DNA of 64,000 nucleotides from Shigella phage ESh32. The translations under genes were made by a program, and so were the position numbers. The notes below the pieces were generated by a model. It saw nothing but the letters and a program-made list of their open reading frames with translations. It had not been told where the DNA came from and ran no database searches. How positions within the stretch are numbered: position 1 is the first letter of the stretch; each line of letters opens with the position of its first letter. Positions 2,623-62,628 of the stretch are shown one piece after another. The stretch lies in sequence record ON528742. One strand, given 5' to 3'.

Positions 2623-2649
2623 TTTTCTATCAGTTAAGAGGAGAACAAC

Positions 2650-3111: not shown

Positions 3112-3118
3112 GGTAAGC

Positions 3119-3664
3119 ATGAGAAAAGCACTACTCGCTGGTCTATTGGCCATTTCAATGATGGCACATAGCTCCGAGCATACTTTCAGTAATGTCCAAC
3201 TCGATAACATGCGTTACGCGTATCAATTCGGGGAACAATTTTCTAAGGATGGAAAATATAAAACACACAAAAATATCCACAAGAGCGGATTAGGTCATAT
3301 AATGGCTGCTATTTTATGGCAAGAAAGCTCTGGCGGAGTTAATTTAAAATCTAAACCAAAGCATCACGCTTATGGAATGTTCCAAAATTATTTGCCTACT
3401 ATGCGAGCAAGAGTTAAGGAACTTGGTTATAATATGACCGATGCTGAAATAAAAAGAATGTTGAATAAACGGTCCAATTCAGCTTCCTGGGCGTACATTG
3501 AACTTTCTTATTGGTTAAATATACATAAGGGCGATATAAGAAAAGCAATATCCTCTTATAATTCGGGATGGAATGTTAAAGCTGGTTCTAAATATGCTTC
3601 TGAAGTCCTAGAAAAGGCTAATTACCTTAAAAATAATAAACTTTTGGAAATAGTAAATGACTAA
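3119..3664 (+). CDS. secreted lytic transglycosylase-like protein (SLT-like)
   Basis: N-terminal signal peptide MRKALLAGLLAISMMAHS; WQESSGG and YGMFQ motifs resembling SLT catalytic region. Confidence 0.55.
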   Translation: MRKALLAGLLAISMMAHSSEHTFSNVQLDNMRYAYQFGEQFSKDGKYKTHKNIHKSGLGHIMAAILWQESSGGVNLKSKPKHHAYGMFQNYLPTMRARVKELGYNMTDAEIKRMLNKRSNSASWAYIELSYWLNIHKGDIRKAISSYNSGWNVKAGSKYASEVLEKANYLKNNKLLEIVND

Positions 3665-3998
3665 AATTTTGGTTTTATGTATAGGATTAATTTCATTTTC
3701 TGCGTTAGCAGATACATCATATACTGAAATTAGAGAGTATGTAAACCGCACTGCGGCAGATTATTGTGGGAAAAATAAAGCATGCCAAGCTGAATTTGCA
3801 CAGAAATTAATATATGCATACAAAGACGGAGAAAGAGATAAATCAAGCAGATACAAAAACGATACATTATTAAAACGATATGCTAAAAAGTGGAATACCT
3901 TAGAATGTTCAGTTGCGGAGGAGAAAGATAAAGCCGCTTGTCATTCAATGGTTGACCGTTTGGTAGATTCTTATAATCGAGGATTGAGTACTAGATGA
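3657..3998 (+). CDS. hypothetical secreted protein
   Basis: 113-aa ORF with signal peptide MTKILVLCIGLISFSALA; ATG overlaps upstream stop. Confidence 0.5.
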   Translation: MTKILVLCIGLISFSALADTSYTEIREYVNRTAADYCGKNKACQAEFAQKLIYAYKDGERDKSSRYKNDTLLKRYAKKWNTLECSVAEEKDKAACHSMVDRLVDSYNRGLSTR

Positions 3999-4462
3999 TT
4001 GTAAAATATATCAAGGGCGATATTGTCGCCCTTTTCGCTGAAGGTAAAAATATTGCGCATGGATGCAATTGTTTTCATACGATGAAAGCAGGAGTCGCAG
4101 GTCAATTAACTAAAGCTTTTCCTAAAATTTTGGAAGCTGATAAATTACAGACTGAATGGGGTGATGTAACTAAACTTGGTTCTTATTCAGTTTATGAAAA
4201 ATACTTTAGGACTCATAAAGCTTACTGCTTTAATCTTTATACTCAATTTCAACCAGGGCCAAATTTTGAGTATTCCGCTTTAATGAATTGTATGTTAGAA
4301 TTAAATGAGTTTGGTGAAAATAAACTGATTAAACCTACAATCTATATGCCTAGGATTGGTGCAGGCATAGGTAAAGGGAACTGGGATATTATTGAGGGGA
4401 TTTTAGATACATATTCTTCTAAATTAGAAATTGTGATTGTTGATTGGGAACCATTATTATGA
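3995..4462 (+). CDS. macro-domain-like protein (possible ADP-ribose binding/hydrolase)
   Basis: IKGDIVALFAEGKNIAHGCNCFHTMKAGVAGQL and PRIGAGIGKGNW resemble macro-domain glycine-rich motifs. Confidence 0.5.
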   Translation: MIVKYIKGDIVALFAEGKNIAHGCNCFHTMKAGVAGQLTKAFPKILEADKLQTEWGDVTKLGSYSVYEKYFRTHKAYCFNLYTQFQPGPNFEYSALMNCMLELNEFGENKLIKPTIYMPRIGAGIGKGNWDIIEGILDTYSSKLEIVIVDWEPLL

Positions 4463-4671
4463 AAGTACATTATCCACATCCATATGACCCAAAGAATAAG
4501 GCAGTAATTATTCGTCAATGGGAACGCATTTGTCGTACTAAATGTCCAATTAATAGTCCACATGATGTAGATAAAGACTACATTGGAACATTCGTTGAAT
4601 ATACCTTTATTGATAAGAAAGGTCGTAAACAGCATGTAGAAGAATACTGCTTAAAGGTTACATGGTTATGA
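4459..4671 (+). CDS. hypothetical protein
   Basis: ORF 4444..4671; ATG at 4459 overlaps upstream TGA. Confidence 0.5.
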   Translation: MKVHYPHPYDPKNKAVIIRQWERICRTKCPINSPHDVDKDYIGTFVEYTFIDKKGRKQHVEEYCLKVTWL

Positions 4672-4874
4672 GCCAAACTAGTATTCTTAAAAATGCCCAC
4701 TGTGAAAAGTGTAAATGGCCGGTTGTTTTTGCTTTATGTAATGATGAAATGGCTTGTGGTTTCGATTATTGGTGCTATTGTTCTAATAAAGGATGCATCA
4801 ATCATAAAGGTGAAGGATTTTATTCGGGATTTTATCCTTATCCTGATTTCGTTAAAGAAGGTAAACCAAAATGA
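4662..4874 (+). CDS. cysteine-rich small protein
   Basis: 70-aa ORF with CxxC...C...CxC...C pattern. Confidence 0.5.
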   Translation: MVMSQTSILKNAHCEKCKWPVVFALCNDEMACGFDYWCYCSNKGCINHKGEGFYSGFYPYPDFVKEGKPK

Positions 4875-5044
4875 ATAGTTTTGAGTTACAATACGAAGTG
4901 TTACGTGAGCTTGATAATTTAATTGAACTCGCTGTTAATAAAGGTTTTGCCATTGGAATCGGTCAAAAAGATACTGGTCATTTAACTATGGAAATATTTA
5001 AGCAAAAGCGAATTATTTTAAAACTCCTGGAAATTAATATATGA
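4871..5044 (+). CDS. hypothetical small protein
   Basis: 57-codon ORF read from sequence (not in track); ATGA overlaps at both ends. Confidence 0.4.
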   Translation: MNSFELQYEVLRELDNLIELAVNKGFAIGIGQKDTGHLTMEIFKQKRIILKLLEINI

Positions 5045-5226
5045 GTCTGAGTAAAGAACAAAAAGATAAATTATTTGAGCTTATCCATGAACTTCTAGAT
5101 GAGCATACAGAAGCAAACACCTTTTATGATGAATACGGCCCGTTATCTCCCGAACAGCAGGAAGAATTTGCTGATCGGTTTGATAAGAAAGAAAATGAAT
5201 TAATAGCTTATGTGAATACGCTTTAA
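5041..5226 (+). CDS. hypothetical acidic small protein
   Basis: 61-aa ORF, ATG overlaps upstream stop. Confidence 0.5.
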   Translation: MSLSKEQKDKLFELIHELLDEHTEANTFYDEYGPLSPEQQEEFADRFDKKENELIAYVNTL

Positions 5227-5235
5227 GAAGGTGAT

Positions 5236-5817
5236 ATGGCGAGTTTAATTTTTACTTATGCAGCAATGAATGCTGGAAAATCTGCTTCTCTTTTGACTGC
5301 TGCGCATAATTATAAAGAGCGTGGAATGAGTGTATTAGTTCTTAAGCCTGCTATTGATACTCGCGATTCTGTCTGCGAAGTCGTTTCTCGCATTGGAATT
5401 AAACAGGAAGCGAATATTATTACAGATGATATGGATATTTTTGAGTTCTATAAATGGGCTGAAGCACAAAAAGATATTCATTGCGTATTTGTAGATGAAG
5501 CTCAGTTTTTAAAAACTGAACAGGTGCATCAATTAAGTCGAATTGTTGATACATATAATGTTCCTGTTATGGCTTATGGATTAAGGACTGATTTCGCTGG
5601 AAAATTATTTGAAGGTTCTAAAGAACTTTTAGCGATTGCAGATAAACTTATTGAACTAAAGGCAGTTTGTCATTGCGGCAAAAAAGCGATCATGACAGCT
5701 CGATTAATGGAAGATGGAACACCAGTTAAAGAAGGTAATCAAATCTGTATAGGTGATGAAATTTATGTTTCTTTGTGTAGAAAACATTGGAATGAATTAA
5801 CTAAAAAGCTCGGTTAG
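5236..5817 (+). CDS. tk: thymidine kinase
   Basis: P-loop MNAGKSASLL, 193 aa, C-terminal Cys cluster typical of type II TK; matches remembered T4 Tk. Confidence 0.9.
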   Translation: MASLIFTYAAMNAGKSASLLTAAHNYKERGMSVLVLKPAIDTRDSVCEVVSRIGIKQEANIITDDMDIFEFYKWAEAQKDIHCVFVDEAQFLKTEQVHQLSRIVDTYNVPVMAYGLRTDFAGKLFEGSKELLAIADKLIELKAVCHCGKKAIMTARLMEDGTPVKEGNQICIGDEIYVSLCRKHWNELTKKLG

Positions 5818-8508: not shown

Positions 8509-9030
8509 ATGTTTATTTCAAGTGGAAGTGGTTTAATTCGTGTTGAATTTAAAAATGATATTTTCCTTATTCAAGGAGATGATATTATTAAAATGAGTTA
8601 TGATGAAATCAAGAAAATTTGTCATACTCTTGAAAGCCGTGGAAACGTAAATGCTGTTATTGACATTGGTGATTTATGGGTAACGCTTTATGAAGTATCC
8701 GAAGGATTTAATATTGAAGATGAAAATAACATTTTAGCTATTGATAAAAGAACTGATTTGTTTGATGTATTAAAAGCCTATGAACAGTCAAATGGTGGAA
8801 GAAAAGCTGTATTGATTTATCAAAAACCACATTCATGCGGAACTGCTTCAATCATTTCAAATATTGAAGGCGAAGCTGATACTTATATGTGTGTTTTAAA
8901 AGCTGGTGGTGACCGTCATCCGGATTTTATTTCTATTCGTCAAAACAATGGAGAAATTTCATTATCAAAATCAGAAGCTGAAGCTATGATTAAGTATTTA
9001 ACAACTGTTACGCCTTCAATGAAAGGATAA
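8509..9030 (+). CDS. hypothetical protein (paralog of 7960..8502)
   Basis: 173 aa; C-terminus ...EAEAMIKYLTTVTPSMKG parallels upstream gene. Confidence 0.55.
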   Translation: MFISSGSGLIRVEFKNDIFLIQGDDIIKMSYDEIKKICHTLESRGNVNAVIDIGDLWVTLYEVSEGFNIEDENNILAIDKRTDLFDVLKAYEQSNGGRKAVLIYQKPHSCGTASIISNIEGEADTYMCVLKAGGDRHPDFISIRQNNGEISLSKSEAEAMIKYLTTVTPSMKG

Positions 9031-9032
9031 TT

Positions 9033-9494
9033 ATGATTATTAATGAAAATTCTTGGCATTATAAATTATTCAAATTGTTTAACGATGAATGGCAACGACC
9101 TAAGACACTATGCGCATATTTTTGGTCTATTGCCATTCCTACATTTTTCGTTTCTATTTTTGGATGTACTATACTCGTAGGGCTAACAATTATTTGTGCA
9201 GAAAGCCTACAACGTTGGCTTATTTTCGGTAGTTTATGGACTCTTCTTCCATCGGCATTTATATTTGCGCTTTTGGCTGTTTTACTTATTATTGGTTCAT
9301 TTGTTATTCCTGTACATTTGCGTGAAAAATATAAAGATTATAAATGGAAAAAGGATTATGCTTTACACGTAGAAAACATTGATAGGAAAAATAAAGGTTT
9401 ACCTCCTATTCAACCCAAGAAATCGATTATCGTTGAATTTTTAAAAGCTCGTAAAGCTAAAGTATGTCCTGTTATTGAATATAAGGCTGAATGA
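9033..9494 (+). CDS. integral membrane protein
   Basis: 153 aa with at least three hydrophobic helices. Confidence 0.55.
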   Translation: MIINENSWHYKLFKLFNDEWQRPKTLCAYFWSIAIPTFFVSIFGCTILVGLTIICAESLQRWLIFGSLWTLLPSAFIFALLAVLLIIGSFVIPVHLREKYKDYKWKKDYALHVENIDRKNKGLPPIQPKKSIIVEFLKARKAKVCPVIEYKAE

Positions 9495-10618: not shown

Positions 10619-11587
10619 ATGAAAACTGTAACTATCAATAAGGGTATCTACTTCGGTAAAGAAATCTCTGGAACTTTTGAGCTCTTAGGCGAATGGTTCC
10701 CAGATAATGCTCCGGTAGATGCACAAGGAGATGGTAAAGTTTTTGTTGAAATTGACGGTAAACGTCGCGGTGTTTGGGTTTACAAATCAGACATTTCATA
10801 TGATGGTGTAAAAGTTGAAGAAGTTAAAGAATCATATGAAGATATGAAAACCCGCATTAATAAAAGATTTAATGTTATGGGAATGATGACGAATGGTATT
10901 ATTAACGGAAACATTCGTTCATTAATTATCTCTGGTGCGGCGGGTATTGGTAAAACGTATTCTTTAGATAAAGCTTTAAATAAAGCAAATGATATTGGAT
11001 ACATTGAATATAAAAGCATTAACGGTAAAATCTCCGGTATCGGTCTTTATGAGCAGCTTTGGAATAATCGTGAAGAGAATTCTGTCCTTTTGATTGATGA
11101 TGTGGATGTTTTCTCTGATATGGACATTCTTAATCTTCTGAAAGCTGCTCTGGACACCGGAGAGACCCGTAAAGTCTGCTGGAGCACCGCATCTTCTTAC
11201 TTAGAAGAAAAAGGCATTGAGCGTGAGTTTGAATTTAAAGGAACGATTGTTTTTATCACAAACGTTGACATTGACCGCGAATTAGACCGTGGTACTAAAC
11301 TTGCTCCACATTTACAAGCATTAGTGTCCCGCTCAGTTTATTTGGATTTGGGTGTTCACACTAATGAAGAAATTATGGTCAGGGTTGAAGATGTTATTCT
11401 TTCAACTGACATGATGCAAAAGCGCGGTCTTTCTGATGAAGAAACTTATAAAGCATTATCATGGATGAAAGTCAATGTTAATCGTTTACGCAATGTTTCA
11501 CTGCGTACTGCTCTTTATCTTGCTGACTTTATTATGACCGACAAAAACGGTTGGGAAGAAATTGCTGAAACGGTATTATTAAAATGA
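10619..11587 (+). CDS. AAA+/P-loop ATPase
   Basis: Walker A GAAGIGKTY, Walker B VLLIDDVD; ATG at 10619 after GGAG in the conserved leader. Confidence 0.65.
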   Translation: MKTVTINKGIYFGKEISGTFELLGEWFPDNAPVDAQGDGKVFVEIDGKRRGVWVYKSDISYDGVKVEEVKESYEDMKTRINKRFNVMGMMTNGIINGNIRSLIISGAAGIGKTYSLDKALNKANDIGYIEYKSINGKISGIGLYEQLWNNREENSVLLIDDVDVFSDMDILNLLKAALDTGETRKVCWSTASSYLEEKGIEREFEFKGTIVFITNVDIDRELDRGTKLAPHLQALVSRSVYLDLGVHTNEEIMVRVEDVILSTDMMQKRGLSDEETYKALSWMKVNVNRLRNVSLRTALYLADFIMTDKNGWEEIAETVLLK

Positions 11588-12303
11588 AAAAATATTTTAC
11601 TATCTATAAAACTGAAATATTAAATTTAAAGACAGGTATTAAGAAATACTATTATGGTCGACATATAACTAATAACATCAATGATTCGTATGTTGGTAGT
11701 GGAAATTATATAGAACGTGTAAAAGTGTCAAATGACCATATATTATCAAAAACGGTTTTAGAAGTTTTTGATAATTATGATAAAATGGTACAAGCCGAAA
11801 TATTATATATCATGGCAGGTAAATTGAAATATGGAAAAAACTGCGTTAACCTGTCATATGGGGGTGAAGGAGGAAAGGTTGCAGATGAAACTAGGATAAA
11901 ATGTAAAAAGCATTCTATAAATTTATGGAAAAATCCTAATCATATAGAGCATATGAAGAAAAAGATGAAAGAGGTCACATCCACGCCGGAAGCTAAATTA
12001 AACACTTCAATAAAAACTTCACAACGATATAAGGACCCAGCTTTTGTTAGAAAAGTTAGTAATATTATTAAAAAGACACTAAGCAATCCTACAGTAAAAG
12101 AAAAGCACATTAATGGAATTAAAGCTGCAAAGCGTTCTCATTTAACTATATGGCAGTATGAAGATGAATTATTCGAGCTTTGGAAAGAAACTAAATACGG
12201 ATGGAGAAAATTTACAAAGGAAGCTATAAAACACGGTTATCCAAATGAACCTTATCGTAGTATGGTATCAACTTTTCAGAAAAGACATTTAGAAGAATCG
12301 TAA
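11584..12303 (+). CDS. GIY-YIG family homing endonuclease-like protein (seg-like)
   Basis: N-terminal FTIYKTEILNLKTGIKKYYYGRH (GIY..YIG-like spacing, following Arg); basic C-terminal region. Confidence 0.6.
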   Translation: MKKYFTIYKTEILNLKTGIKKYYYGRHITNNINDSYVGSGNYIERVKVSNDHILSKTVLEVFDNYDKMVQAEILYIMAGKLKYGKNCVNLSYGGEGGKVADETRIKCKKHSINLWKNPNHIEHMKKKMKEVTSTPEAKLNTSIKTSQRYKDPAFVRKVSNIIKKTLSNPTVKEKHINGIKAAKRSHLTIWQYEDELFELWKETKYGWRKFTKEAIKHGYPNEPYRSMVSTFQKRHLEES

Positions 12304-19964: not shown

Positions 19965-20438
19965 ATGTTATTGACTGGCAAATTATATAAAGAAGAAAAA
20001 CAGAAATTTTATGATGCACAAAATGGTAAATGCTTAATTTGCCAACGAGAACTAAATCCTGATGTTCAAGCTAATCACCTCGACCATGACCATGAATTAA
20101 ATGGACCAAAAGCAGGAAAGGTACGTGGATTGCTTTGTAATCTCTGCAATGCCGCAGAAGGTCAAATGAAGCATAAATTTAATCGTTCTGGCTTAAAGGG
20201 ACAAGGTGTTGATTATCTTGAATGGTTAGAAAATTTACTTACTTATTTAAAATCCGATTACACCCAAAATAATATTCACCCTAACTTTGTTGGAGATAAA
20301 TCAAAGGAATTTTCTCGTTTAGGAAAAGAGGAAATGATGGCTGAGATGCTTCAAAGAGGATTTGAATATAATGAATCTGACACCAAAACACAATTAATAG
20401 CTTCATTCAAGAAGCAGCTTAGAAAGAGTTTAAAATGA
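19965..20438 (+). CDS. 49: endonuclease VII (Holliday-junction resolvase)
   Basis: 157 aa; matches remembered T4 gp49 (MLLTGKLYKEEKQKFYDAQNGKCLICQREL...). Confidence 0.9.
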   Translation: MLLTGKLYKEEKQKFYDAQNGKCLICQRELNPDVQANHLDHDHELNGPKAGKVRGLLCNLCNAAEGQMKHKFNRSGLKGQGVDYLEWLENLLTYLKSDYTQNNIHPNFVGDKSKEFSRLGKEEMMAEMLQRGFEYNESDTKTQLIASFKKQLRKSLK

Positions 20439-22252
20439 CAATTGAAAAAGAAATTGAAGGATTGATTCATAAAACTAATAAAGACCTTTTAAACGAGAAT
20501 GCTAATAAAGATTCTCGTGTTTTTCCAACTCAACGGGACCTTATGGCTGGTATTGTGTCTAAACACATTGCCAAAAATATGGTCCCGTCTTTTATTATGA
20601 AAGCGCATGAAAGCGGAATTATCCATTTCCATGATATTGATTATTCCCCTGCTCTTCCATTTACTAATTGCTGTTTAGTAGATTTAAAAGGAATGCTTGA
20701 AAACGGATTTAAGCTAGGTAATGCGCAGATTGAAACTCCTAAATCAATTGGCGTTGCTACTGCAATTATGGCACAAATTACTGCGCAAGTTGCTTCCCAT
20801 CAATATGGCGGAACGACTTTTGCGAATGTAGATAAAGTACTTTCTCCTTATGTTAAACGCACCTATGCAAAACATATTGAGGATGCAGAAAAATGGCAAA
20901 TCGCTGATGCGTTAAATTATGCTCAATCTAAAACAGAAAAAGATGTATACGATGCATTCCAAGCTTATGAATATGAAGTAAATACTCTCTTTAGTTCAAA
21001 CGGACAAACGCCTTTTGTAACAATTACATTTGGTACGGGAACTGACTGGACTGAACGAATGATTCAGAAAGCAATTCTGAAAAATCGTATTAAAGGTCTT
21101 GGTCGTGATGGGATAACTCCTATTTTCCCTAAGCTTGTTATGTTTGTTGAAGAAGGTGTTAATCTTTATAAAGATGATCCGAACTATGATATTAAACAGC
21201 TTGCTCTAGAGTGCGCAAGCAAAAGGATGTATCCTGATATTATTTCAGCTAAGAACAATAAAGCTATCACTGGTTCATCTGTTCCTGTTTCTCCGATGGG
21301 TTGCCGTAGTTTCTTGAGCGTATGGAAAGATTCGACTGGCAATGAAATTCTTGATGGACGTAATAATCTTGGTGTTGTAACACTGAATCTTCCTCGTATC
21401 GCATTAGATTCTTATATTGGAACACAGTTCAATGAACAGAAATTTATCGAATTGTTCAATGAACGAATGGATTTATGTTTTGAAGCTTTGATGTGTAGAA
21501 TTAGTTCCTTAAAAGGAGTTAAAGCGACTGTTGCTCCTATTCTTTACCAAGAAGGTGCATTCGGGGTTCGTCTTAAACCTGATGACGACATAATTGAGTT
21601 ATTTAAAAACGGTAGAAGTTCAGTGTCTTTAGGATACATTGGTATTCATGAATTGAATATTCTTGTCGGTCGTGATATTGGACAAGAAATTTTAACTAAA
21701 ATGAATGCTCGTCTTAAGCAGTGGACCGAAAGAACCGGTTTTGCTTTTAGCTTGTATTCTACTCCTGCTGAAAACCTTTGCTATCGCTTCTGTAAACTTG
21801 ATACTGAAAAATATGGAAGTGTAAAAGATGTTACTGATAAAGGCTGGTACACTAACAGTTTCCACGTTTCAGTAGAAGAAAATGTTACTCCGTTTGAAAA
21901 GATTTCTCGTGAAGCGCCATATCATTTCATTGCGACAGGTGGTCACATTTCTTATGTTGAACTTCCTGATATGAAAAATAACTTAAAAGGTCTTGAGGCT
22001 GTATGGGATTATGCCGCACAACATTTAGATTATTTTGGTGTTAATATGCCAGTGGATAAATGTTTTACATGTGGAAGTACCCATGAAATGACTCCTACTG
22101 AAAACGGATTTGTTTGTTCTATTTGTGGAGAAACTGATCCTAAAAAGATGAACACAATAAGAAGAACATGTGGTTATTTGGGAAATCCGAACGAACGCGG
22201 ATTTAATCTCGGTAAAAATAAAGAAATCATGCATAGGGTTAAACACCAATGA
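20435..22252 (+). CDS. nrdD: anaerobic ribonucleoside-triphosphate reductase, intronless
   Basis: 605 aa; C-terminal Zn ribbon CxxC...CxxC and glycyl-radical motif RRTCGY. Confidence 0.95.
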   Translation: MTIEKEIEGLIHKTNKDLLNENANKDSRVFPTQRDLMAGIVSKHIAKNMVPSFIMKAHESGIIHFHDIDYSPALPFTNCCLVDLKGMLENGFKLGNAQIETPKSIGVATAIMAQITAQVASHQYGGTTFANVDKVLSPYVKRTYAKHIEDAEKWQIADALNYAQSKTEKDVYDAFQAYEYEVNTLFSSNGQTPFVTITFGTGTDWTERMIQKAILKNRIKGLGRDGITPIFPKLVMFVEEGVNLYKDDPNYDIKQLALECASKRMYPDIISAKNNKAITGSSVPVSPMGCRSFLSVWKDSTGNEILDGRNNLGVVTLNLPRIALDSYIGTQFNEQKFIELFNERMDLCFEALMCRISSLKGVKATVAPILYQEGAFGVRLKPDDDIIELFKNGRSSVSLGYIGIHELNILVGRDIGQEILTKMNARLKQWTERTGFAFSLYSTPAENLCYRFCKLDTEKYGSVKDVTDKGWYTNSFHVSVEENVTPFEKISREAPYHFIATGGHISYVELPDMKNNLKGLEAVWDYAAQHLDYFGVNMPVDKCFTCGSTHEMTPTENGFVCSICGETDPKKMNTIRRTCGYLGNPNERGFNLGKNKEIMHRVKHQ

Positions 22253-22719
22253 ATTACGATAGATTTTATCCTTGCGATTTTGTTAATGGCCCTGGTTGCA
22301 GGGTCGTTCTTTTCGTTACAGGTTGTTTGCATAAATGCGAAGGGTGTTATAATAAATCAACATGGAATGCTAGAAATGGTATTCCATTCACTGGTGAAAC
22401 ACTAGAACAATTAATTGAATGTTTGAATAATGATTATATGGAAGGATTGACTATAACCGGAGGAGACCCTCTCTATCCTGATAACCGAGATGTTATTCAC
22501 TCTGTAGTTCAAACTATTAAAAATCTTTATCCCAATAAAAGCATTTGGTTGTGGACAGGATATAAGTTTGAAGATATTAAACAGCTAGAAATGCTTAAAT
22601 ATGTTGATGTTATTATTGATGGGAAGTATGAGAAAAATCTTCCGACCAAAAAGCTGTGGCGAGGATCAGATAATCAGCGACTTTGGTCAAATACCGATGG
22701 GGTGTGGACACATGATTAA
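22249..22719 (+). CDS. nrdG: anaerobic RNR activating enzyme (radical SAM)
   Basis: CLHKCEGC radical-SAM-type Cys cluster; ATGA overlap with nrdD. Confidence 0.9.
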   Translation: MNYDRFYPCDFVNGPGCRVVLFVTGCLHKCEGCYNKSTWNARNGIPFTGETLEQLIECLNNDYMEGLTITGGDPLYPDNRDVIHSVVQTIKNLYPNKSIWLWTGYKFEDIKQLEMLKYVDVIIDGKYEKNLPTKKLWRGSDNQRLWSNTDGVWTHD

Positions 22720-27036: not shown

Positions 27037-27060
27037 AAACCAAAACAAAGAGGATATTAA

Positions 27061-28263
27061 ATGAAAGTATGTATTTTTATGGCTCGAGGTCTTGAAGGTT
27101 GTGGTGTAACAAAATTCTCACTCGAGCAACGTGATTGGTTTATTAAAAATGGTCATGAAGTGACTTTGGTTTATGCTAAAGATAAATCATTTACTCGTAA
27201 TTGCGCGCATGATTATAAATCATTTTCAATTCCGGTTTTATTGGCAAAAGAATACGATAAAACACTTAAGCTGGTAAATGATTGTGATATTCTAATTATC
27301 AATTCAGTTCCTGCTACTTCGGTTGAAGAAGACACTATTAATAACTATAAAAAAATTATTGATAACATTAAACCTTCTGTTCGTGTTGTAGTTTATCAGC
27401 ATGACCATTCTTCTCTTTCTTTGCGTCGAAATTTGGGATTAGAAGAAACTGTTCGTCGAGCTGATGTTATTTTTAGCCATTCTGATAATGGTGATTTTAA
27501 TAAAGTTCTGATGAAAGAATGGTATCCTGAAACAGTTTCTCTGTTTGATGATATTGAAGAAGCACCGACCGTATATAACTTTCAGCCTCCTATGGATATT
27601 GCGAAAGTTCGATCAACCTATTGGAAAGATGTTTCTGAAATTAATATGAATATCAACCGTTGGATTGGTCGTACGACTACATGGAAAGGTTTTTATCAGA
27701 TGTTTGATTTTCACGAAAAACATCTTAAACCTGCAGGACTAAGTACTATTATGGAAGGTCTGGAACGTTCTCCAGCGTTCATTCCTATTAAAGAAAAAGG
27801 AATTCCATACGAGTATTATCGTCTTCATCAAGTAGACCAAATTAAAATTGCTCCTAATTTGCCAACGCAAATTCTTGACCGTTATGTAAATAGCGAAATG
27901 CTTGAACGTATGAGTAAATCCGGTTTTGGTTATCAGTTGAGTAAGTTGGATAAAAAATATCTACAGCGCTCTTTAGAATATACTCATCTCGAGCTTGGTG
28001 CATGTGGAACAATTCCGGTATTTTGGAAATCTACTGGCGAAAATTTAAAATTCCGTGTTGATAATACTCCTTTGACCTCGCATGATAGCGGTATCATTTG
28101 GTTTGATGAAAATGATATGGAATCAACATTTGAACGTATTAAAGAACTGTCATCTGACCGAGCTCTTTATGACCGTGAGCGAGAAAAAGCATATGAATTT
28201 TTGTATCAGCACCAAGATTCAAGCTTCTGCTTTAAAGAACAGTTTGACATTATTACAAAATAA
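27061..28263 (+). CDS. a-gt: DNA alpha-glucosyltransferase
   Basis: 400 aa; matches remembered T4 alpha-gt (CIFMARGLEGCGVTKFSLEQRDWFIKNGHEVTLVYAKDKSF...). Confidence 0.9.
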   Translation: MKVCIFMARGLEGCGVTKFSLEQRDWFIKNGHEVTLVYAKDKSFTRNCAHDYKSFSIPVLLAKEYDKTLKLVNDCDILIINSVPATSVEEDTINNYKKIIDNIKPSVRVVVYQHDHSSLSLRRNLGLEETVRRADVIFSHSDNGDFNKVLMKEWYPETVSLFDDIEEAPTVYNFQPPMDIAKVRSTYWKDVSEINMNINRWIGRTTTWKGFYQMFDFHEKHLKPAGLSTIMEGLERSPAFIPIKEKGIPYEYYRLHQVDQIKIAPNLPTQILDRYVNSEMLERMSKSGFGYQLSKLDKKYLQRSLEYTHLELGACGTIPVFWKSTGENLKFRVDNTPLTSHDSGIIWFDENDMESTFERIKELSSDRALYDREREKAYEFLYQHQDSSFCFKEQFDIITK

Positions 28264-38917: not shown

Positions 38918-39658
38918 ATGATTAGTGACTCTATGACAGTTGAAGAAATCCGTCTTCATTTGGGGCTTGCATTAAAAGAAAAAGATTTCGTAGTTGATAA
39001 AACTGGTGTTAAAACTATTGAAATTATTGGCGCATCATTTGTAGCAGATGAACCGTTTATTTTTGGCGCTCTTAATGATGAATACATTCAGCGTGAACTT
39101 GAATGGTATAAATCTAAGAGCTTGTTTGTTAAAGATATTCCAGGTGAAACACCAAAGATTTGGCAGCAGGTCGCATCTTCTAAAGGCGAAATTAATTCGA
39201 ATTACGGTTGGGCTATTTGGTCAGAAGATAACTACGCCCAGTATGATATGTGTTTAGCTGAACTTGGTCAAAACCCTGATTCTCGACGTGGTATTATGAT
39301 TTATACTCGTCCATCCATGCAATTTGACTACAATAAAGATGGTATGTCAGATTTCATGTGTACTAATACAGTACAGTACCTGATTCGTGATAAGAAAGTC
39401 AATGCAGTAGTAAGCATGCGCTCAAATGACGTGGTCTTCGGATTCCGTAATGATTATGCATGGCAAAAATACGTATTAGATAAATTAGTATTTGATTTGA
39501 ATGCCGGCGATTCAACTCGTCAGTATAAAGCAGGTTCTATTATATGGAATGTCGGAAGTCTTCATGTATATTCTCGTCATTTTTACTTGGTTGATCATTG
39601 GTGGAATACTGGCGAAACTCATATTGTGAAAAAAGACTATAAAGGTGAGTGGAAATGA
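38918..39658 (+). CDS. 42: dCMP hydroxymethylase gp42
   Basis: 246 aa; thymidylate-synthase-like fold; matches remembered T4 gp42. Confidence 0.9.
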   Translation: MISDSMTVEEIRLHLGLALKEKDFVVDKTGVKTIEIIGASFVADEPFIFGALNDEYIQRELEWYKSKSLFVKDIPGETPKIWQQVASSKGEINSNYGWAIWSEDNYAQYDMCLAELGQNPDSRRGIMIYTRPSMQFDYNKDGMSDFMCTNTVQYLIRDKKVNAVVSMRSNDVVFGFRNDYAWQKYVLDKLVFDLNAGDSTRQYKAGSIIWNVGSLHVYSRHFYLVDHWWNTGETHIVKKDYKGEWK

Positions 39659-40497
39659 TTCAATTCGTAATTCCAAGTTATCAGCGTGTCGGGGCAGTTT
39701 CTGCCCTTGATATGTTTCCGACTGATTATGAACCCCATATTGTAGTGCGTGAACATGAAGAAAAAGCTTATTATGATGCCTATGGGTCTAGAGCTAAAAT
39801 TATAACTATTCCTGATGATGTAAACGGAATTGCCGGTACTCGTAAAGCAATTACTGATATGTATGCAGGTCAACGAATCTGGATGATTGACGATGATACT
39901 ACTATTCGTATGAGTTCAATGCGAAAAAGAGATGACCGTCGTTGTGTGGATAAAGTCAATCAATTAACCCGTGAACAGTTCTATGAATTGATTCAATACG
40001 TCGAAGATGCCATGGATTGTGGGTATTATCACGGTCATGCTCGTCTACCTATTTTTAAAATTACTTCATCTTGGGGTAATTATCGTGAAAATTCATATGG
40101 ATTCACGAATACATGGTATGACCTCGGAAAACTTACTACAGAACAAATTGGGTATGGAAAAATTGATTTGTGCGAAGATATGTATGCATTTCTCAATTTA
40201 ATTAATCAAGGTTATCCGCATTTGGCCTTGTTCAAATATCTGGTTGTATCTGGAAAAGCACAAGCTCCTGGCGGGTGCAGTTCAATTCGTAGTAATTCTA
40301 AACATAATAGAGCGCTTGAGCAAATCAATAGAGAGTTTCCAGAGCAAGCTCGTTGGAAAACTTCTAATATTGAAAAACGAAAATCGTTGGGTGAAGAAGA
40401 CGAGCCATTAAAGGTTCTTCGCATGTGTGTTTCGCGCAAAGAAAAATCAGAAGCATTTCATAAGTTTAATGCTATTCATCCGATAGCAGTTGATTAA
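39649..40497 (+). CDS. GT-A fold glycosyltransferase at the beta-gt locus
   Basis: DxD motif WMIDDDT; unrelated to remembered T4 beta-gt sequence. Confidence 0.6.
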   Translation: MEMIQFVIPSYQRVGAVSALDMFPTDYEPHIVVREHEEKAYYDAYGSRAKIITIPDDVNGIAGTRKAITDMYAGQRIWMIDDDTTIRMSSMRKRDDRRCVDKVNQLTREQFYELIQYVEDAMDCGYYHGHARLPIFKITSSWGNYRENSYGFTNTWYDLGKLTTEQIGYGKIDLCEDMYAFLNLINQGYPHLALFKYLVVSGKAQAPGGCSSIRSNSKHNRALEQINREFPEQARWKTSNIEKRKSLGEEDEPLKVLRMCVSRKEKSEAFHKFNAIHPIAVD

Positions 40498-40521
40498 TGC
40501 CTAAATTTATTGTGTTATAAT
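40497..40521 (+). promoter_or_regulatory. weak candidate middle promoter upstream of uvsX
   Basis: TGCCTAA (imperfect MotA box), 12 nt, TATAAT. Confidence 0.3.
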
Positions 40522-40574
40522 TACTCTATCTTTAACCAGTGAGGAAAATATAATGATGCCTATGGAAAAAATGA

Positions 40575-41756
40575 ATGTCTATTGCAGATTTAAAATCCCG
40601 TTTGATTAAAGCTTCAACTTCTAAAATGACTGCTGAACTGACTACATCTAAATTCTTTAATGAAAAGGATGTAATCCGTACAAAAATCCCAATGCTTAAT
40701 ATTGCTATTTCTGGTGCGATTGATGGCGGCATGCAGTCTGGTTTAACTATTTTCGCAGGGCCTTCTAAACACTTTAAATCAAATATGTCTTTGACTATGG
40801 TTGCGGCATATTTGAACAAATATCCTGACGCGGTTTGTCTATTCTATGATAGCGAATTTGGTATCACTCCAGCTTATTTGCGATCTATGGGAGTTGACCC
40901 GGAACGAGTAATTCATACACCAATCCAGTCAGTTGAACAGCTGAAAATTGATATGGTGAACCAGCTTGAAGCTATTGAGCGTGGTGAAAAGGTTATTGTA
41001 TTCATCGACTCAATTGGTAATATGGCTTCTAAGAAAGAAACGGAAGATGCCTTGAATGAAAAATCTGTGGCAGATATGACTCGTGCTAAATCACTGAAGT
41101 CATTATTCCGTATTGTTACTCCTTACTTTAGCATTAAAAATATTCCATGTGTTGCGGTTAACCATACAATTGAAACAATTGAAATGTTTAGTAAAACCGT
41201 GATGACAGGCGGTACAGGCGTAATGTATTCGGCTGATACTGTATTCATTATCGGTAAACGTCAGATTAAAGATGGTTCTGATCTTCAGGGATATCAATTT
41301 GTTCTAAATGTAGAAAAATCTCGTACCGTTAAAGAAAAAAGTAAATTCTTTATTGATGTTAAATTTGACGGTGGTATCGATCCTTATTCTGGATTGTTAG
41401 ATATGGCTCTAGAATTAGGATTTGTAGTAAAACCTAAAAATGGCTGGTATGCTCGTGAATTTCTTGACGAAGAAACCGGTGAGATGATTCGCGAAGAAAA
41501 ATCTTGGCGTGCAAAAGATACCAACTGCACTACATTCTGGGGTCCTTTATTTAAGCATCAACCATTCCGAGATGCTATTAAACGTGCTTATCAGTTAGGT
41601 GCTATTGATAGTAATGAAATTGTTGAAGCTGAAGTTGATGAATTGATTAACTCAAAGGTTGAAAAATTTAAATCTCCAGAAAGTAAAAGTAAATCAGCAG
41701 CTGATTTAGAAACTGACCTCGAGCAGTTAAGTGATATGGAAGAATTTAATGAATAA
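40575..41756 (+). CDS. uvsX: RecA-like recombinase UvsX
   Basis: 393 aa; Walker A GPSKHFKS; matches remembered T4 UvsX. Confidence 0.95.
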   Translation: MSIADLKSRLIKASTSKMTAELTTSKFFNEKDVIRTKIPMLNIAISGAIDGGMQSGLTIFAGPSKHFKSNMSLTMVAAYLNKYPDAVCLFYDSEFGITPAYLRSMGVDPERVIHTPIQSVEQLKIDMVNQLEAIERGEKVIVFIDSIGNMASKKETEDALNEKSVADMTRAKSLKSLFRIVTPYFSIKNIPCVAVNHTIETIEMFSKTVMTGGTGVMYSADTVFIIGKRQIKDGSDLQGYQFVLNVEKSRTVKEKSKFFIDVKFDGGIDPYSGLLDMALELGFVVKPKNGWYAREFLDEETGEMIREEKSWRAKDTNCTTFWGPLFKHQPFRDAIKRAYQLGAIDSNEIVEAEVDELINSKVEKFKSPESKSKSAADLETDLEQLSDMEEFNE

Positions 41757-46769: not shown

Positions 46770-46782
46770 ATGTCCTCCTTAT

Positions 46783-46806
46783 TGCTTTATATATTTATTG
46801 TATAAT
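46783..46806 (+). promoter_or_regulatory. candidate MotA-dependent middle promoter for gene 56
   Basis: TGCTTTA, 11 nt, TATAAT. Confidence 0.5.
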
Positions 46807-46840: not shown

Positions 46841-47359
46841 ATGGCTTACTTTAACGAATGTTCACAACTGATTGAAGGCGCTGATAAAGCTCAAAATGAA
46901 TATTGGGATATTCTCGGTGATGAAAAAGACCCGCTGCAGGTAATGCTCGATATGCAGAAATCTCTGCAAGTTCGTTTAGCTAAAGATAAACCTGAATATA
47001 ATCGTCATCCTGATGACTTGGCTACTGCAGGTGAAGTTGTTGATTGGTTGCGTAATCAGAAAGATTATATTGACGATGAATTCCGTGAACTTCTGACTTC
47101 TCTTGGTGGTATGAGCAATGGTGAAAAAGATGCATCTGCTGTATGGAAACCTTGGAAGTCGCAGCATGGTGAACGTCGTGAAACTCTGATTACTGATTTG
47201 TCTCCACAAGACCAATTGGAAATTAAATTTGAAATGATTGATATTCTCCATTTCGTTCTGAACATGTTCCAAGGTCTTGGTCTTACAGCAGAAGAAATCT
47301 TTAAACTTTATTATCTAAAAAATGCCGAAAACTTTGCTCGTCAAGACCGAGGTTATTAA
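46841..47359 (+). CDS. 56: dCTPase/dCDPase gp56 (MazG-like)
   Basis: ORF 46748..47359; ATG at 46841 gives 172 aa MAYFNECSQLIEGADKAQNEYWDILGDEKDPLQ... Confidence 0.85.
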   Translation: MAYFNECSQLIEGADKAQNEYWDILGDEKDPLQVMLDMQKSLQVRLAKDKPEYNRHPDDLATAGEVVDWLRNQKDYIDDEFRELLTSLGGMSNGEKDASAVWKPWKSQHGERRETLITDLSPQDQLEIKFEMIDILHFVLNMFQGLGLTAEEIFKLYYLKNAENFARQDRGY

Positions 47360-47389
47360 CAGCTCGTCTTAAAAGCCGCGAGAATTTAT

Positions 47390-47397
47390 TATAAATA
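47390..47397 (+). promoter_or_regulatory. late promoter TATAAATA upstream of soc
   Basis: exact TATAAATA about 30 nt upstream of soc ATG. Confidence 0.6.
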
Positions 47398-57048: not shown

Positions 57049-57473
57049 TGGCTATTAAATTTGAAGTTAATAAATGGTATCAATTTAAAAATAAACAAGC
57101 TCAAGAAGATTTTATCAAGGACCATACTGAAAACGGAATTTATGCACGACGTCTTGGTATGGAACCTTTTAGAGTTACAGATATTGACTATCTTGGTCGT
57201 CCTACTAAACTTGTGACATCTAGTGGAAAATTGGCGTTATCTTCTGGTAAAGATATTTTGGATGAAGATTTTATCTGGCTTTCAACGAGTGAAGCCGTGT
57301 TCTTTGATGAAGTGGAAAATCCATACCAGGCAGCTGAAGAGCAAGAGCAGGAAGAGAAAGAGCAAGAACAAATAGAAGATTTCACAGAATTCCCGGTCAT
57401 GAAAGTTACTATTGAAAATAATGAACAGGCATGGTCTTTGTATCAGATGTTGAAAGCACACTTTAAGGAATAA
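57048..57473 (+). CDS. hypothetical protein with acidic C-terminal segment
   Basis: 141 aa, [12 protein letters not shown] tract. Confidence 0.5.
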
Positions 57474-57475
57474 TT

Positions 57476-57652
57476 ATGCCAATGTATGATTATAAATGCC
57501 AATCCGAAGATTGCGGGCATGAATATGAAAAAATTAAAAAGATTTCTGAACGAGAAAATGATGTTTGCCCTAAATGTCATCGTTTGTCTACTCGTCGGCC
57601 TTCTGCTCCTAAGCATGTGAATGGCGGTTTTTACGATTTACTTAAAGGGTGA
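57476..57652 (+). CDS. small zinc-ribbon protein (FmdB-like)
   Basis: 58 codons read from sequence: YKCQSEDCGH...CPKCH (CxxC-x~20-CxxC). Confidence 0.45.
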   Translation: MPMYDYKCQSEDCGHEYEKIKKISERENDVCPKCHRLSTRRPSAPKHVNGGFYDLLKG

Positions 57653-57654
57653 TT

Positions 57655-58029
57655 ATGTTTAAAATCGGTAAGAAATATCGTGTTCGCGAAGGTGAAGAAA
57701 AGAAATATCTACTTTCTACTAGTAATAGGAGTGGTTCTATTAATGCCGTAATATCTACAAGCGAATTTATCGTTGAAGATATGAAAGGTCATAATGTTAC
57801 AATGATTAGTACAGCAACTAGCAGAAATGCTGGAAAAATTCTTCACAGTTTTCAGAGTAATGTTCTAATTTATGATGAAGAATTTGACTTCTTCGAAGAA
57901 GTTCCTGAAGATTTTGATTTTGAATGCACTATTACTATGAAATCTGGTGACCCTCTTTCTTTTACAGTTAAAGATGAAAGAAGCCGTTTGAGAATTATTA
58001 GTCTCCTTCAAGCCATTAAATTTAAGTGA
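57655..58029 (+). CDS. hypothetical protein
   Basis: ORF 57649..58029 (GTG); ATG at 57655. Confidence 0.5.
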   Translation: MFKIGKKYRVREGEEKKYLLSTSNRSGSINAVISTSEFIVEDMKGHNVTMISTATSRNAGKILHSFQSNVLIYDEEFDFFEEVPEDFDFECTITMKSGDPLSFTVKDERSRLRIISLLQAIKFK

Positions 58030-58034
58030 AAATT

Positions 58035-58295
58035 ATGAAATATGTTAATCGTTCTATCGCAGCATTAGTATTAGCAGTATCTTTAGTAGGATGTACTGAT
58101 GCTGATAATGCAACCAAAGTTTTATCTTCAAGTGGTTTTACTAATATTGAAATCACTGGATATAATTGGTTTGGTTGTTCTGAAAATGATTTCCAACATA
58201 CTGGATTTCGTGCTATTGGACCTACTGGGCAGAAAGTAGAAGGAACCGTGTGTTCTGGTCTATTCTTCAAGGATTCGACTATCCGTTTTAAATAA
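58035..58295 (+). CDS. lipoprotein
   Basis: ORF 58026..58295 (GTG); ATG at 58035; lipobox LVGC. Confidence 0.5.
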   Translation: MKYVNRSIAALVLAVSLVGCTDADNATKVLSSSGFTNIEITGYNWFGCSENDFQHTGFRAIGPTGQKVEGTVCSGLFFKDSTIRFK

Positions 58296-58296
58296 A

Positions 58297-58313
58297 AGGC
58301 CTTCGGGCCTTTA
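58297..58313 (+). terminator. UUCG-loop hairpin
   Basis: aggccttcgggcct followed by ttagcttta. Confidence 0.55.
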
Positions 58314-58364
58314 GCTTTATGATTGCCGGAGTATAATATTCCCGAAACCAAACGAGGATAAGTG

Positions 58365-60182
58365 ATGATTAAGAATGAAATTAAAATTCTGAGCGATATT
58401 GAACATATCAAAAAGCGTAGTGGCATGTATATTGGCTCTTCTGCTAATGAAATGCATGAGCGCTTTCTGTTTGGTAAATGGGAAAGTGTTCAGTATGTAC
58501 CTGGTCTTGTTAAGCTTATTGATGAAATTATCGATAACTCAGTAGATGAAGGTATTCGTACTAAGTTTAAATTCGCAAATAAAATTAATGTTACTATTAA
58601 AAACAATCAAGTAACAGTTGAAGATAACGGTCGCGGTATTCCACAGGCGATGGTTAAAACACCTACCGGTGAAGAAATTCCTGGTCCTGTTGCTGCATGG
58701 ACTATTCCAAAAGCAGGTGGTAACTTTGGTGATGATAAAGAACGTGTCACCGGTGGTATGAATGGTGTTGGTTCTAGTTTAACTAACATTTTTTCTGTGA
58801 TGTTTGTCGGTGAAACTGGCGATGGTCAAAATAATATTGTAGTTCGTTGTTCAAATGGCATGGAAAATAAATCCTGGGAAACTATTCCAGGAAAATGGAA
58901 AGGAACCCGTGTTACTTTCATTCCTGATTTTATGTCATTTGAAACTAATGAGCTGTCCCAAGTTTATCTTGACATTACACTAGATCGTCTCCAGACACTT
59001 GCTGTTGTTTATCCTGATATTCAATTTACTTTTAATGGTAAAAAGGTTCAGGGCAATTTTAAGAAATATGCACGACAGTATGATGAACATGCTATTGTTC
59101 AAGAACAAGAAAATTGTTCTATTGCGGTTGGTCGTTCACCGGATGGTTTTCGTCAATTAACTTACGTGAATAACATTCATACTAAGAATGGTGGCCATCA
59201 CATTGACTGTGTTATGGATGATATTTGCGAAGACCTTATTCCACAAATCAAACGTAAATTCAAAATTGATGTAACTAAAGCACGCGTTAAAGAATGTTTG
59301 ACTATCGTTATGTTTGTTCGTGATATGAAAAACATGCGATTTGATTCTCAAACTAAAGAGCGTTTGACTTCTCCATTTGGCGAAATTCGTAGTCATATTC
59401 AGCTTGATGCTAAAAAGATTTCACGCGCTATTCTAAATAATGAAGCAATTTTAATGCCGATTATTGAAGCTGCTTTAGCACGTAAATTGGCGGCAGAAAA
59501 AGCAGCAGAAACTAAAGCAGCTAAAAAGGCTTCTAAAGCTAAGGTTCATAAACATATCAAAGCGAATCTTTGTGGTAAAGATGCTGACACTACTCTTTTC
59601 TTGACTGAGGGTGATTCTGCTATCGGATATCTTATTGATGTTCGTGATAAAGAACTTCATGGTGGTTATCCATTGCGCGGTAAAGTTCTTAATAGTTGGG
59701 GTATGTCATATGCTGATATGCTTAAAAACAAAGAACTATTTGATATTTGCGCAATCACTGGATTAGTTCTTGGTGAAAAAGCTGAAAACTTGAATTATCA
59801 TAATATTGCTATTATGACCGATGCTGACCATGATGGTTTAGGAAGCATTTATCCTTCTCTGCTCGGATTTTTTAGTAATTGGCCAGAACTGTTTGAACAA
59901 GGAAGAATTCGCTTTGTCAAAACTCCTGTAATCATCGCTCAGGTCGGTAAAAAACAAGAATGGTTTTATACAGTCGCTGAATATGAGAGTGCCAAAGATG
60001 CTCTACCTAAACATAGCATCCGTTATATTAAGGGACTTGGCTCTTTGGAAAAATCTGAATATCGTGAGATGATTCAAAACCCAGTATATGATGTTGTTAA
60101 ACTTCCTGAGAACTGGAAAGAGCTTTTTGAAATGCTCATGGGAGATAATGCTGACCTTCGTAAAGAATGGATGAGCCAGTAG
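58365..60182 (+). CDS. 39: DNA topoisomerase II ATPase subunit gp39, unsplit (T4 gp39 + gp60 equivalent in one ORF)
   Basis: 605 aa from ATG at 58365 (track ORF starts GTG 58362); GHKL ATPase N-terminus; C-terminus continuous through MTDADHDGLGSI...RKEWMSQ. Confidence 0.9.
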   Translation: MIKNEIKILSDIEHIKKRSGMYIGSSANEMHERFLFGKWESVQYVPGLVKLIDEIIDNSVDEGIRTKFKFANKINVTIKNNQVTVEDNGRGIPQAMVKTPTGEEIPGPVAAWTIPKAGGNFGDDKERVTGGMNGVGSSLTNIFSVMFVGETGDGQNNIVVRCSNGMENKSWETIPGKWKGTRVTFIPDFMSFETNELSQVYLDITLDRLQTLAVVYPDIQFTFNGKKVQGNFKKYARQYDEHAIVQEQENCSIAVGRSPDGFRQLTYVNNIHTKNGGHHIDCVMDDICEDLIPQIKRKFKIDVTKARVKECLTIVMFVRDMKNMRFDSQTKERLTSPFGEIRSHIQLDAKKISRAILNNEAILMPIIEAALARKLAAEKAAETKAAKKASKAKVHKHIKANLCGKDADTTLFLTEGDSAIGYLIDVRDKELHGGYPLRGKVLNSWGMSYADMLKNKELFDICAITGLVLGEKAENLNYHNIAIMTDADHDGLGSIYPSLLGFFSNWPELFEQGRIRFVKTPVIIAQVGKKQEWFYTVAEYESAKDALPKHSIRYIKGLGSLEKSEYREMIQNPVYDVVKLPENWKELFEMLMGDNADLRKEWMSQ

Positions 60183-60211
60183 TTTACTTTACCACAAGGA
60201 TGTGGTATAAT
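60182..60211 (+). promoter_or_regulatory. T4-type early promoter
   Basis: agtttactttaccacaaggatgtggtataat. Confidence 0.6.
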
Positions 60212-60236
60212 TAATTGGGCAAATGAGGATATTGGA

Positions 60237-60440
60237 ATGAAATCATATAGAGTAAATTTAGAACTTTTTGATAAAGCAGTTCATCGAGAATATAGAATCA
60301 TTCAACGCTTTTTCGATATGGGAGAAGCCGAAGAATTTAAAAACCGCTTTAAAGATATTAGAGATAAAATTCAATCCGACACCGCAACTAAAGATGAACT
60401 ACTAGAAGTTGCTGAAGTTATTAAGCGTAATATGAATTAA
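60237..60440 (+). CDS. hypothetical protein
   Basis: 67-aa ORF upstream of rIIA. Confidence 0.5.
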
Positions 60441-60450
60441 TGAGGAAATT

Positions 60451-62628
60451 ATGATTATCACCACTGAAAAAGAAACAATTCTTGGTAATGGTTCTAAATC
60501 AAAAGCATTTAGCATCACAGCATCTCCTAAAGTATTTAAAATTCTGTCATCTGATTTGTATACAAACAAGATTCGTGCAGTAGTCCGTGAATTGATTACC
60601 AACATGATTGATGCCCATGCACTCAATGGAAATCCTGAAAAATTTATCATTCAAGTTCCTGGACGTTTAGATCCACGATTTGTTTGCCGAGATTTTGGTC
60701 CGGGTATGAGTGATTTTGATATTCAGGGTGATGATAATTCTCCTGGTCTGTATAATTCATACTTCAGTTCATCTAAGGCTGAATCTAACGATTTCATTGG
60801 CGGATTTGGTTTAGGTTCTAAATCTCCGTTTAGTTATACTGATACATTTAGTATTACTTCGTGTCATAAAGGTGAAATTCGTGGTTATGTAGCTTACATG
60901 GATGGCGATGGTCCACAAATTAAACCTACATTCGTGAAAGAAATGGGTCCAGATGATAAAACTGGTATTGAAATCGTAGTTCCAGTTGAAGAAAAAGACT
61001 TTAGAAACTTTGCTTATGAAGTTTCTTATATCATGCGACCGTTCAAAGATATGGCTATTATTAATGGTCTTGACCGTGAAATTGATTATTTTCCGGATTT
61101 TGATGATTATTACGGTGTAAATCCAGAAAGATACTGGCCTGATCGTGGTGGATTATATGCTATCTATGGCGGTATTGTTTATCCTATCGATGGTGTTATT
61201 AGAGACCGTAACTGGCTAAGCATTCGCAATGAAGTGAATTACATTAAGTTTCCAATGGGTTCACTTGATATTGCTCCATCACGTGAAGCTCTTTCATTGG
61301 ATGATCGTACTCGTAAAAATATTATTGAACGAGTTAAAGAGCTTAGTGAGAAAGCATTTAATGAAGATGTAAAACGATTTAAAGAATCTACATCTCCCCG
61401 TCACACATATCGTGAATTGATGAAGATGGGGTATTCTGCTCGAGATTATATGATTAGTAATTCAGTCAAATTCACGACTAAAAATCTGTCATATAAAAAG
61501 ATGCAGAGCATGTTTGAACCTGACAGTAAGTTATGTAATGCAGGCGTGGTGTATGAAGTAAATCTTGACCCTCGACTGAAACGCATTAAGCAAAGCCATG
61601 AAACTTCAGCCGTTGCATCAAGTTATCGTCTGTTTGGTATTAATACAACAAAAATTAATATCGTTATTGATAATATTAAAAATCGTGTTAATATTGTCCG
61701 TGGATTAGCACATGCGTTAGATGATAGTGAATTTAATAACACTTTAAATATTCATCACAATGAGCGTCTTCTGTTTATTAATCCGGAAGTAGAATCGCAG
61801 ATTGATTTACTACCTGATATTATGGCAATGTTTGAAAGTGATGAAGTTAACATTCATTATTTGTCAGAAATTGAAGCTTTAGTTAAAAGCTATATTCCAA
61901 AGGTAGTTAAAAGTAAAGCTCCTCGTCCTAAAGCTGCTACAGCATTTAAATTTGAAATTAAAGATGGACGATGGGAAAAAGAGGAACTATTTACGCTCAC
62001 ATCAGAAGCAGATGAAATTACTGGTTATGTAGCGTATATGCATCGTTCTGATATTTTCTCTATGGATGGTACTACATCGCTTTGTCATCCATCTATGAAT
62101 ATTTTGATTCGTATGGCTAATCTTATTGGCATTAATGAATTTTATGTTATTCGTCCGCTTTTACAGAAAAAGGTAAAAGAACTCGGTCAGTGCCAATGTA
62201 TTTTTGAAGCTTTGCGTGATTTATATGTAGATGCTTTTGATGATGTAGATTATGATAAGTATGTAGGTTATTCAAGTTCAGCTCAACGATATATTGATAA
62301 AATTATCAAGTATCCTGAGCTAGATTTTATGATGAAGTACTTCAGTACAGATGAAGTTTCTGAAGAATATACACGACTCGCTAATATAGTTAGTTCATTG
62401 CGCGGTGTATATTTTAATGGTGGAAAAGATACCATCGGTCATGATATCTGGACAGTAACTAATCTTTTTGATGTATTATCAAATAATGCTTCAAAAAACA
62501 GTGATAAAATGGTTGCTGAGTTTACCAAGAAATTCCGTATTGTTTCCGACTTCATCGGATATCGCAACTCTTTAAGTGATGATGAAGTTTCCCAAATCGC
62601 TAAAACTATGAAGGCCCTTGCGGCCTAA
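60451..62628 (+). CDS. rIIA: rIIA protein
   Basis: 725 aa; N-terminal GHKL-like ATPase motifs ([19 protein letters not shown]). Confidence 0.9.

Follow-up and report, generated by a model that had tools for sequence, protein, structure and literature searches.

A one-piece topoisomerase gene 39 with an unoccupied MobA site in Shigella phage ESh32

In bacteriophage T4 (NC_000866, our T4 reference throughout) the large subunit of the phage type IIA DNA topoisomerase is spread over two genes. At positions 2458-5328 of that genome, gene 39 (516 aa) is separated by a mobA remnant and 60.1 from gene 60 (160 aa), which is itself joined across an annotated 50-nt bypass region. The corresponding locus of Shigella phage ESh32 (record ON528742) raises the question of whether the same subunit is encoded there in one piece and, if so, whether this is the original condition or the result of a later loss. 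We analysed a stretch of 64,000 nt from this phage, hereafter the window. For T2 and T6 a one-piece gene 39 has been known ever since the T4 gene 60 bypass was discovered. What the window carries is almost certainly gene 39 in the form usual for a T2/T6-like Tequatrovirus, that is, a GyrB-like subunit in one polypeptide with an empty MobA site.

The gene occupies positions 58365-60182 on the forward strand. It is one ORF, read from an ATG at 58365 to a TAG at 60180-60182, with 605 sense codons and no internal stop in its translation, as the original prediction of a single 605-codon ORF had it. The two peptides quoted in that prediction, IAIMTDADHDGLGSIYPSLLGFF and RKEWMSQ, were both found exactly in the translation. 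At the base composition of the window (34% A, 32% T), a run of 605 codons free of stops would arise by chance with a probability of about 4e-22. The sole alternative start is an in-frame GTG at 58362, one codon upstream of the ATG.

Regarding the signals in front of the gene, a putative Shine-Dalgarno sequence, GAGGA, can be read from the sequence at 58354-58358 (+), 6 nt 5' of the ATG. A candidate T4-type middle promoter may be present at 58312-58337 (+), composed of a MotA-box-like tAGCTTTA, a 12-nt spacer and TATAAT, if measured against the MotA-box consensus. This candidate is absent from the output of the sigma-70 scan. In the consensus scan of 57400-60600, promoter-like sites were no more frequent than in shuffled sequence, and terminators were not found. 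A UUCG-tetraloop hairpin with a perfect 7-bp stem (AAAGGCC-TTCG-GGCCTTT) was observed at 58295-58312 (+); its first base is also the final nucleotide of the stop codon of 39.1, and the candidate middle promoter comes next to it. This hairpin was not called by the terminator scan because its T-run is short. Neither RNA families (Rfam) nor tRNAs were found anywhere in the 64-kb window, and therefore no group I intron or other structured element lies in or near gene 39.

The domain content of the protein is that of an unsplit, full-length large subunit, an assignment based on the ORF, on Pfam and on the identity with T6 gp39. Pfam places HATPase_c at aa 47-149 (E 1.9e-9), DNA_gyraseB at aa 250-384 (E 1.5e-13) and TOPRIM_C at aa 519-604. 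The GHKL motif set is complete with N-box, DxGxG and glycine-rich lid, represented by EIIDNSVDE (aa 54-62), DNGRGIP (aa 87-93) and GGMNGVGSS (aa 130-138) within 58524-58778 (+). The QTK loop of the transducer domain spans aa 329-334 (59349-59366, +), with QTK itself at aa 329-331. Further downstream, the EGDSA motif of the Toprim domain (aa 415-419; 59607-59621, +) is followed by the DxDxD motif DADHDG (aa 486-491; 59820-59837, +). As the conserved Glu and the DxDxD motif are located in one ORF, the Toprim domain is complete in a single polypeptide. The ATPase-transducer-Toprim architecture is common to the gene 39 protein, bacterial GyrB/ParE and the N-terminal half of eukaryotic topoisomerase II, although these bacterial and eukaryotic proteins are distant from it in sequence.

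A search of the PDB adds the view across the site at which T4 is split. T6 gp39 (8YLU chain C and five further entries) is identical in 604 of the 605 residues. Human TOP2A/B and bacterial ParE align in a single stretch across the site (aa 10-603 and aa 6-603, respectively), and the artificially fused T4 gp39-gp60 construct aligns in two stretches. We further report a difference at aa 326-328, directly before the conserved QTK loop: the T4 reference reads RLIRQTK and the window RFDSQTK, with T6 and T2 agreeing with the window against the T4 reference. The T4 reading could be a variant peculiar to T4 or an error from early sequencing of the reference.

The T4 locus encodes the same enzyme subunit among the same neighbouring genes, and both T4 proteins map end to end onto the ESh32 protein in BLASTP, which agrees with the prediction that one ORF spans the gp39 and gp60 segments. 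Residues 1-473 correspond to T4 gp39 1-473 (465/473 identical, 98%) and residues 472-605 to T4 gp60 27-160 (128/134 identical, 96%), while T4 gp39 aa 474-516 and gp60 aa 1-26 are without counterpart in the window protein. On the nucleotide level (BLASTN), window 58033-59782 matches T4 5661-3911 and window 59834-62639 matches T4 2806-1; between the two matching blocks there are 1104 nt in T4 compared to 51 nt in the window. If the break points of this alignment are inspected base by base, a native segment of 64 nt is delimited at 59783-59846 (+; codons 473-494, AENLNYHNIAIMTDADHDGLGS). Its replacement in T4 is the mobA/bypass cassette of approximately 1.1 kb, which comprises the C-terminal tail of gp39, the mobA remnant with 60.1, the N-terminus of gp60, the bypass gap and homR, a diverged copy of the replaced native region. 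The nucleotide identity between T4 homR and the native segment of the window is 70.2%, compared to 96.2% in the 5' part and 99.1% in the 3' part of the flanks.

These boundaries agree with the published mapping of the MobA element, according to which insertion occurred at nt 1399-1419 of the parental gene together with a 64-nt deletion (Manning and Atkins, bioRxiv 10.1101/2022.08.31.505936). The same authors give 67-81% identity between the cassette-borne homR and the parental sequence, a range that includes our value, and describe 9 extra nt of homR past the landing codon for the clade of E. coli phages (clade 1).

At the junction itself the window is uninterrupted and reads GAC CAT GAT GGT TTA GGA AGC ATT, where T4 has GAT CAC GAT GGA TAG-(50-nt gap)-GGA TTA GGT TCT ATT. 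Gly491 of the window is encoded by GGT and followed by TTA GGA AGC; in T4 this place is taken by the take-off GGA, the 50-nt gap and the landing GGA. Gene 39 of the window lacks the 50-nt coding gap, the matched pair of GGA codons for take-off and landing and the stop that follows take-off, and its frame is continuous through DADHDG-LGS. In T4 the cassette lengthens gp39 by 43 aa and gp60 by about 30 aa, and neither of these extensions, the C-terminal one of ORF1 and the N-terminal one of ORF2, is present in the window protein. Remnants of the cassette were searched for by blastn (word size 7), tblastx and tblastn with 60.1 and the fragment of the HNH endonuclease gene mobA as queries, and none of the three gave a match anywhere in the 64-kb window. 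When the T4 cassette is compared to the whole window, the sole similarity is a 46-nt homR stretch in gene 39 with 76% identity. The predicted absence of both an inserted homing-endonuclease gene and a 50-nt bypass element was thus confirmed, and the alignment to T4 genes 39 and 60 reveals no internal untranslated gap or stop in the coding sequence of the window.

T2 and T6 each annotate a gene 39 of 1818 nt at the syntenic position, and the alignment proposed with the original prediction shows the ESh32 gene to be gaplessly colinear with both over these 1818 nt. Compared to T6, whose gp39 (YP_010067157.1) likewise has 605 aa and the same flanking genes, the nucleotide identity is 97.1%; 51 of the 52 substitutions are synonymous and Q526H is the sole difference in the protein. 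The T2 gene (AP018813.1 2447-4264; 605 aa) is 96.9% identical, with 57 nucleotide and two amino acid differences. This disproportion between nucleotide changes (52 and 57) and amino acid changes (one and two) indicates that the one-piece protein is under strong purifying selection over its whole length. In type, the 64-nt site is native, with 94-97% identity to T6/T2. The T2 region is 96.9% identical to that of the window and differs by two synonymous changes, ACC in the window versus ACT in T2 and TTA versus CTA.

Structures of T6 gp39 are available from cryo-EM (PDB 8YLU, 8YO1, 8YO5, 8YO7, 8YOD, 8YON, 9IMJ). The topoisomerase II of T2 and T6 consists of two subunits, gp39 and gp52, and three subunits occur in T4 alone, where an inserted stretch of about 70 aa, specific to T4, lies outside the Toprim domain (PMC11461880). 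A one-piece gene 39 is already known from the two-subunit enzyme of T2/T6, from the "parental" genomes with an empty MobA site (Manning and Atkins 2022) and from Bonocora et al. 2011.

The locus occurs in two states in the phage collection. With a 201-nt query centred on the junction, 498 records were matched, and the junction is continuous in 454 of them; the remaining records (e.g. T4T, pSe_SNUABM_01) have a single one-sided match. The T4 cassette (T4 2803-3910) was found in 43 records of the collection. For a wider count the 116 residues around the site were used in tblastn, which matched 1970 phage records. The junction region is in one piece in 1889 of these, at identities from 100% to approximately 32%, and the phages include those of Klebsiella, Acinetobacter, Aeromonas, Vibrio and Agrobacterium, Vi1-like Salmonella phages (Ackermannviridae-type) and jumbo phages. 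Among the single-piece matches listed, the 116-aa junction spans exactly 348 nt down to about 72% identity, a group that consists, among the matches listed, of Tequatrovirus together with Klebsiella, Raoultella and Enterobacter phages. More distant relatives deviate by only 3-12 nt. Accordingly, no "hit-and-run" insertion of about 70 aa is hidden at the site.

The one-piece gene is the state of both the majority and the outgroup, and is therefore ancestral by parsimony. A further argument comes from the divergence pattern of T4. Its flanks resemble the window to the same degree as the unsplit T2 and T6 resemble each other, but its homR reaches only 70%, which identifies the T4 segment as the foreign piece. 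The cellular and eukaryotic type IIA enzymes, which align in one stretch across the site, also support the ancestry. From the two counts, the absence of any remnant of the cassette extensions (about 70 aa) and the divergence of homR, the ancestral status that the prediction had assigned to the unsplit gene is well supported.

A different history would be that a forerunner of ESh32 bore the cassette, which was later removed through precise excision or through homologous recombination with a relative of the unsplit type; the one-piece state would then be restored and not primitive. In favour of this, recombination among T-even phages is free, the window has a mosaic make-up, and a "hit-and-run" loss of the cassette is on record for Aeromonas phages (clade 7; Manning and Atkins, 10.1101/2022.08.31.505936). 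We nevertheless regard such a reversion as very unlikely. In the recorded hit-and-run cases the C- and N-terminal extensions of the cassette stay within the fused ORF (Manning and Atkins, 10.1101/2022.08.31.505936), whereas the ESh32 protein has no extra residues compared to T2/T6. The span of the junction is the 348 nt that the listed relatives share or nearly share, and the 64-nt site resembles T6/T2 and not T4 homR (about 70%). Replacement by an unsplit donor would leave no scar, yet it is uncalled for with about 91% of the relatives unsplit. An origin by hit-and-run, giving a re-fused Topo2L, was rejected as the extra sequence at the site is absent and the length equals that of T2/T6.

Of similarly slight probability is the reading that the site is empty but not naive, either after a scarless loss of the cassette or since its two synonymous differences from T2 (ACC at 59814-59816, TTA at 59838-59840) alter nicking by MobA. 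If nicking were altered, the locus would represent an "empty" allele that resists the homing endonuclease in a continuing arms race. That the continuous ORF is an artefact of assembly or annotation, or a decaying gene in a phage with another topoisomerase arrangement, is hardly credible, as the junction is gaplessly colinear with at least 454 independent phage genomes, only one or two residues changed against 52-57 nucleotides relative to T6/T2, every catalytic motif is intact and we found no evidence in favour of this reading.

Taking the gene as a standard one-piece gene 39, a mechanistic picture can be proposed from homology and the literature. The polypeptide begins with a GHKL ATPase at its N-terminus, followed by a transducer domain and a complete Toprim domain. 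If it behaves like its T6 homologue, a pair of these chains would join a pair of gp52 chains, gp52 being the GyrA-like subunit with the catalytic tyrosine, to form a heterotetramer. In the canonical type IIA strand-passage cycle, such a heterotetramer would open one DNA duplex by a transient double-strand break and pass a second duplex through it, using ATP. The acidic residues E415 and D486/D488/D490 of the Toprim domain would bind the Mg2+ for cleavage and religation. For T6 the gp39-gp52 heterotetramer is active and relaxes DNA, and ATP-dependent relaxation was also reported for T6 gp39 combined with T4 gp52 (PMC11461880). The activity of the phage enzyme is relaxation and not supercoiling (PMC11461880). 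The window ends 422 nt past rIIB. Gene 52 lies outside the window; on the T4 gene map its place is beyond rIIB.

As the MobA cassette is not inserted, translation of gene 39 would be conventional, with one start, one stop and neither re-initiation nor bypass. The 64-nt stretch at 59783-59846 represents the unoccupied homing site of MobA. T2 gene 39 was the substrate of demonstrated MobA homing (Bonocora et al. 2011, as cited by Manning and Atkins 2022). In a mixed infection with a phage carrying active MobA it is predicted that the site of ESh32 would be nicked and gene 39 converted to the split form.

The window as a whole is a Tequatrovirus segment, syntenic with T4 from about 65 kb to 1 and then into rIIB, and its best database relatives are about 96% identical over 25 kb. 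Upstream of gene 39 lie homologues of goF and 39.2, a 126-aa ORF and a 39.1 homologue, of which goF, 39.2 and 39.1 are syntenic with T4. Downstream follow rIIA.1 (Pfam T4_RIIA1), rIIA and rIIB, again syntenic with T4. The 126-aa ORF at 57649-58029 (+), between the 39.2 and 39.1 homologues, belongs to PHROG 622 of unknown function and is weakly similar to a goF family; 375 nt of this region are missing in T4, and T6 and T2 annotate a gene at the same place. The 39.1 homologue at 58035-58295 (+) begins with a lipoprotein-type signal peptide and a lipobox, MKYVNRSIAALVLAVSLVG|C. The matching N-terminal part of the T4 39.1 region (5398-5670, −) is out of frame and contains stops, and therefore the annotated 65-aa gp39.1 is without the signal. 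In the T6 and T2 records 39.1 bears the label "XRE family transcriptional regulator", apparently in error.

Relative to T4, gene 39 is one among several empty sites in the window. Other T4 elements that are absent are the nrdD group I intron with I-TevII, mobC, mobB, segA, segF and mobD; the window positions concerned are 20435-22252 (junction 20970/20973), 22249-22269, 27045-27070, 39641-40586, 47359-47390 and 8528-9489. The nrdD gene of the window is one ORF of 605 aa without an Rfam intron match, and the I-TevII, mobC, mobB, segA, segF and mobD proteins of T4 gave no convincing tblastn match in the window. At 11567-12300, between the nrdC.10 and nrdC.9 homologues, the window has an insertion of 734 nt compared to T4. 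An ORF at 11584-12303 (+; 239 aa) falls into PHROG 314 "homing endonuclease" (E 4e-30) and its protein is 25-27% identical to T4 SegA/SegF, with no Pfam match. It is thus a likely free-standing endonuclease of the Seg type, placed where T4 has an empty site.

Two further differences from T4 were noted. T4 has a dam methyltransferase gene (899 nt there) between its genes 61 and 56; the window lacks it at 46780-46801, and a tblastn search of the whole window with T4 Dam gave no match. The gene 56 allele next to this dam-less site is unusually diverged from T4 (about 75% nucleotide and 73% amino acid identity). The place of the T4 beta-glucosyltransferase is occupied by a 282-aa beta-glucosyl-HMC-alpha-glucosyltransferase at 39649-40497 (+; PHROG 842, E 2e-89; Pfam TAGT), the DNA glucosylation enzyme of the T2/T6 type.

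In itself the gene 39 of ESh32 is of little significance, since the one-piece form is the usual condition in T4-like phages. Its practical use is limited to that of a further "parental" allele against which the boundaries of the MobA/bypass cassette can be mapped. At the gene 39 locus it is T4, the textbook phage, that is the atypical one.
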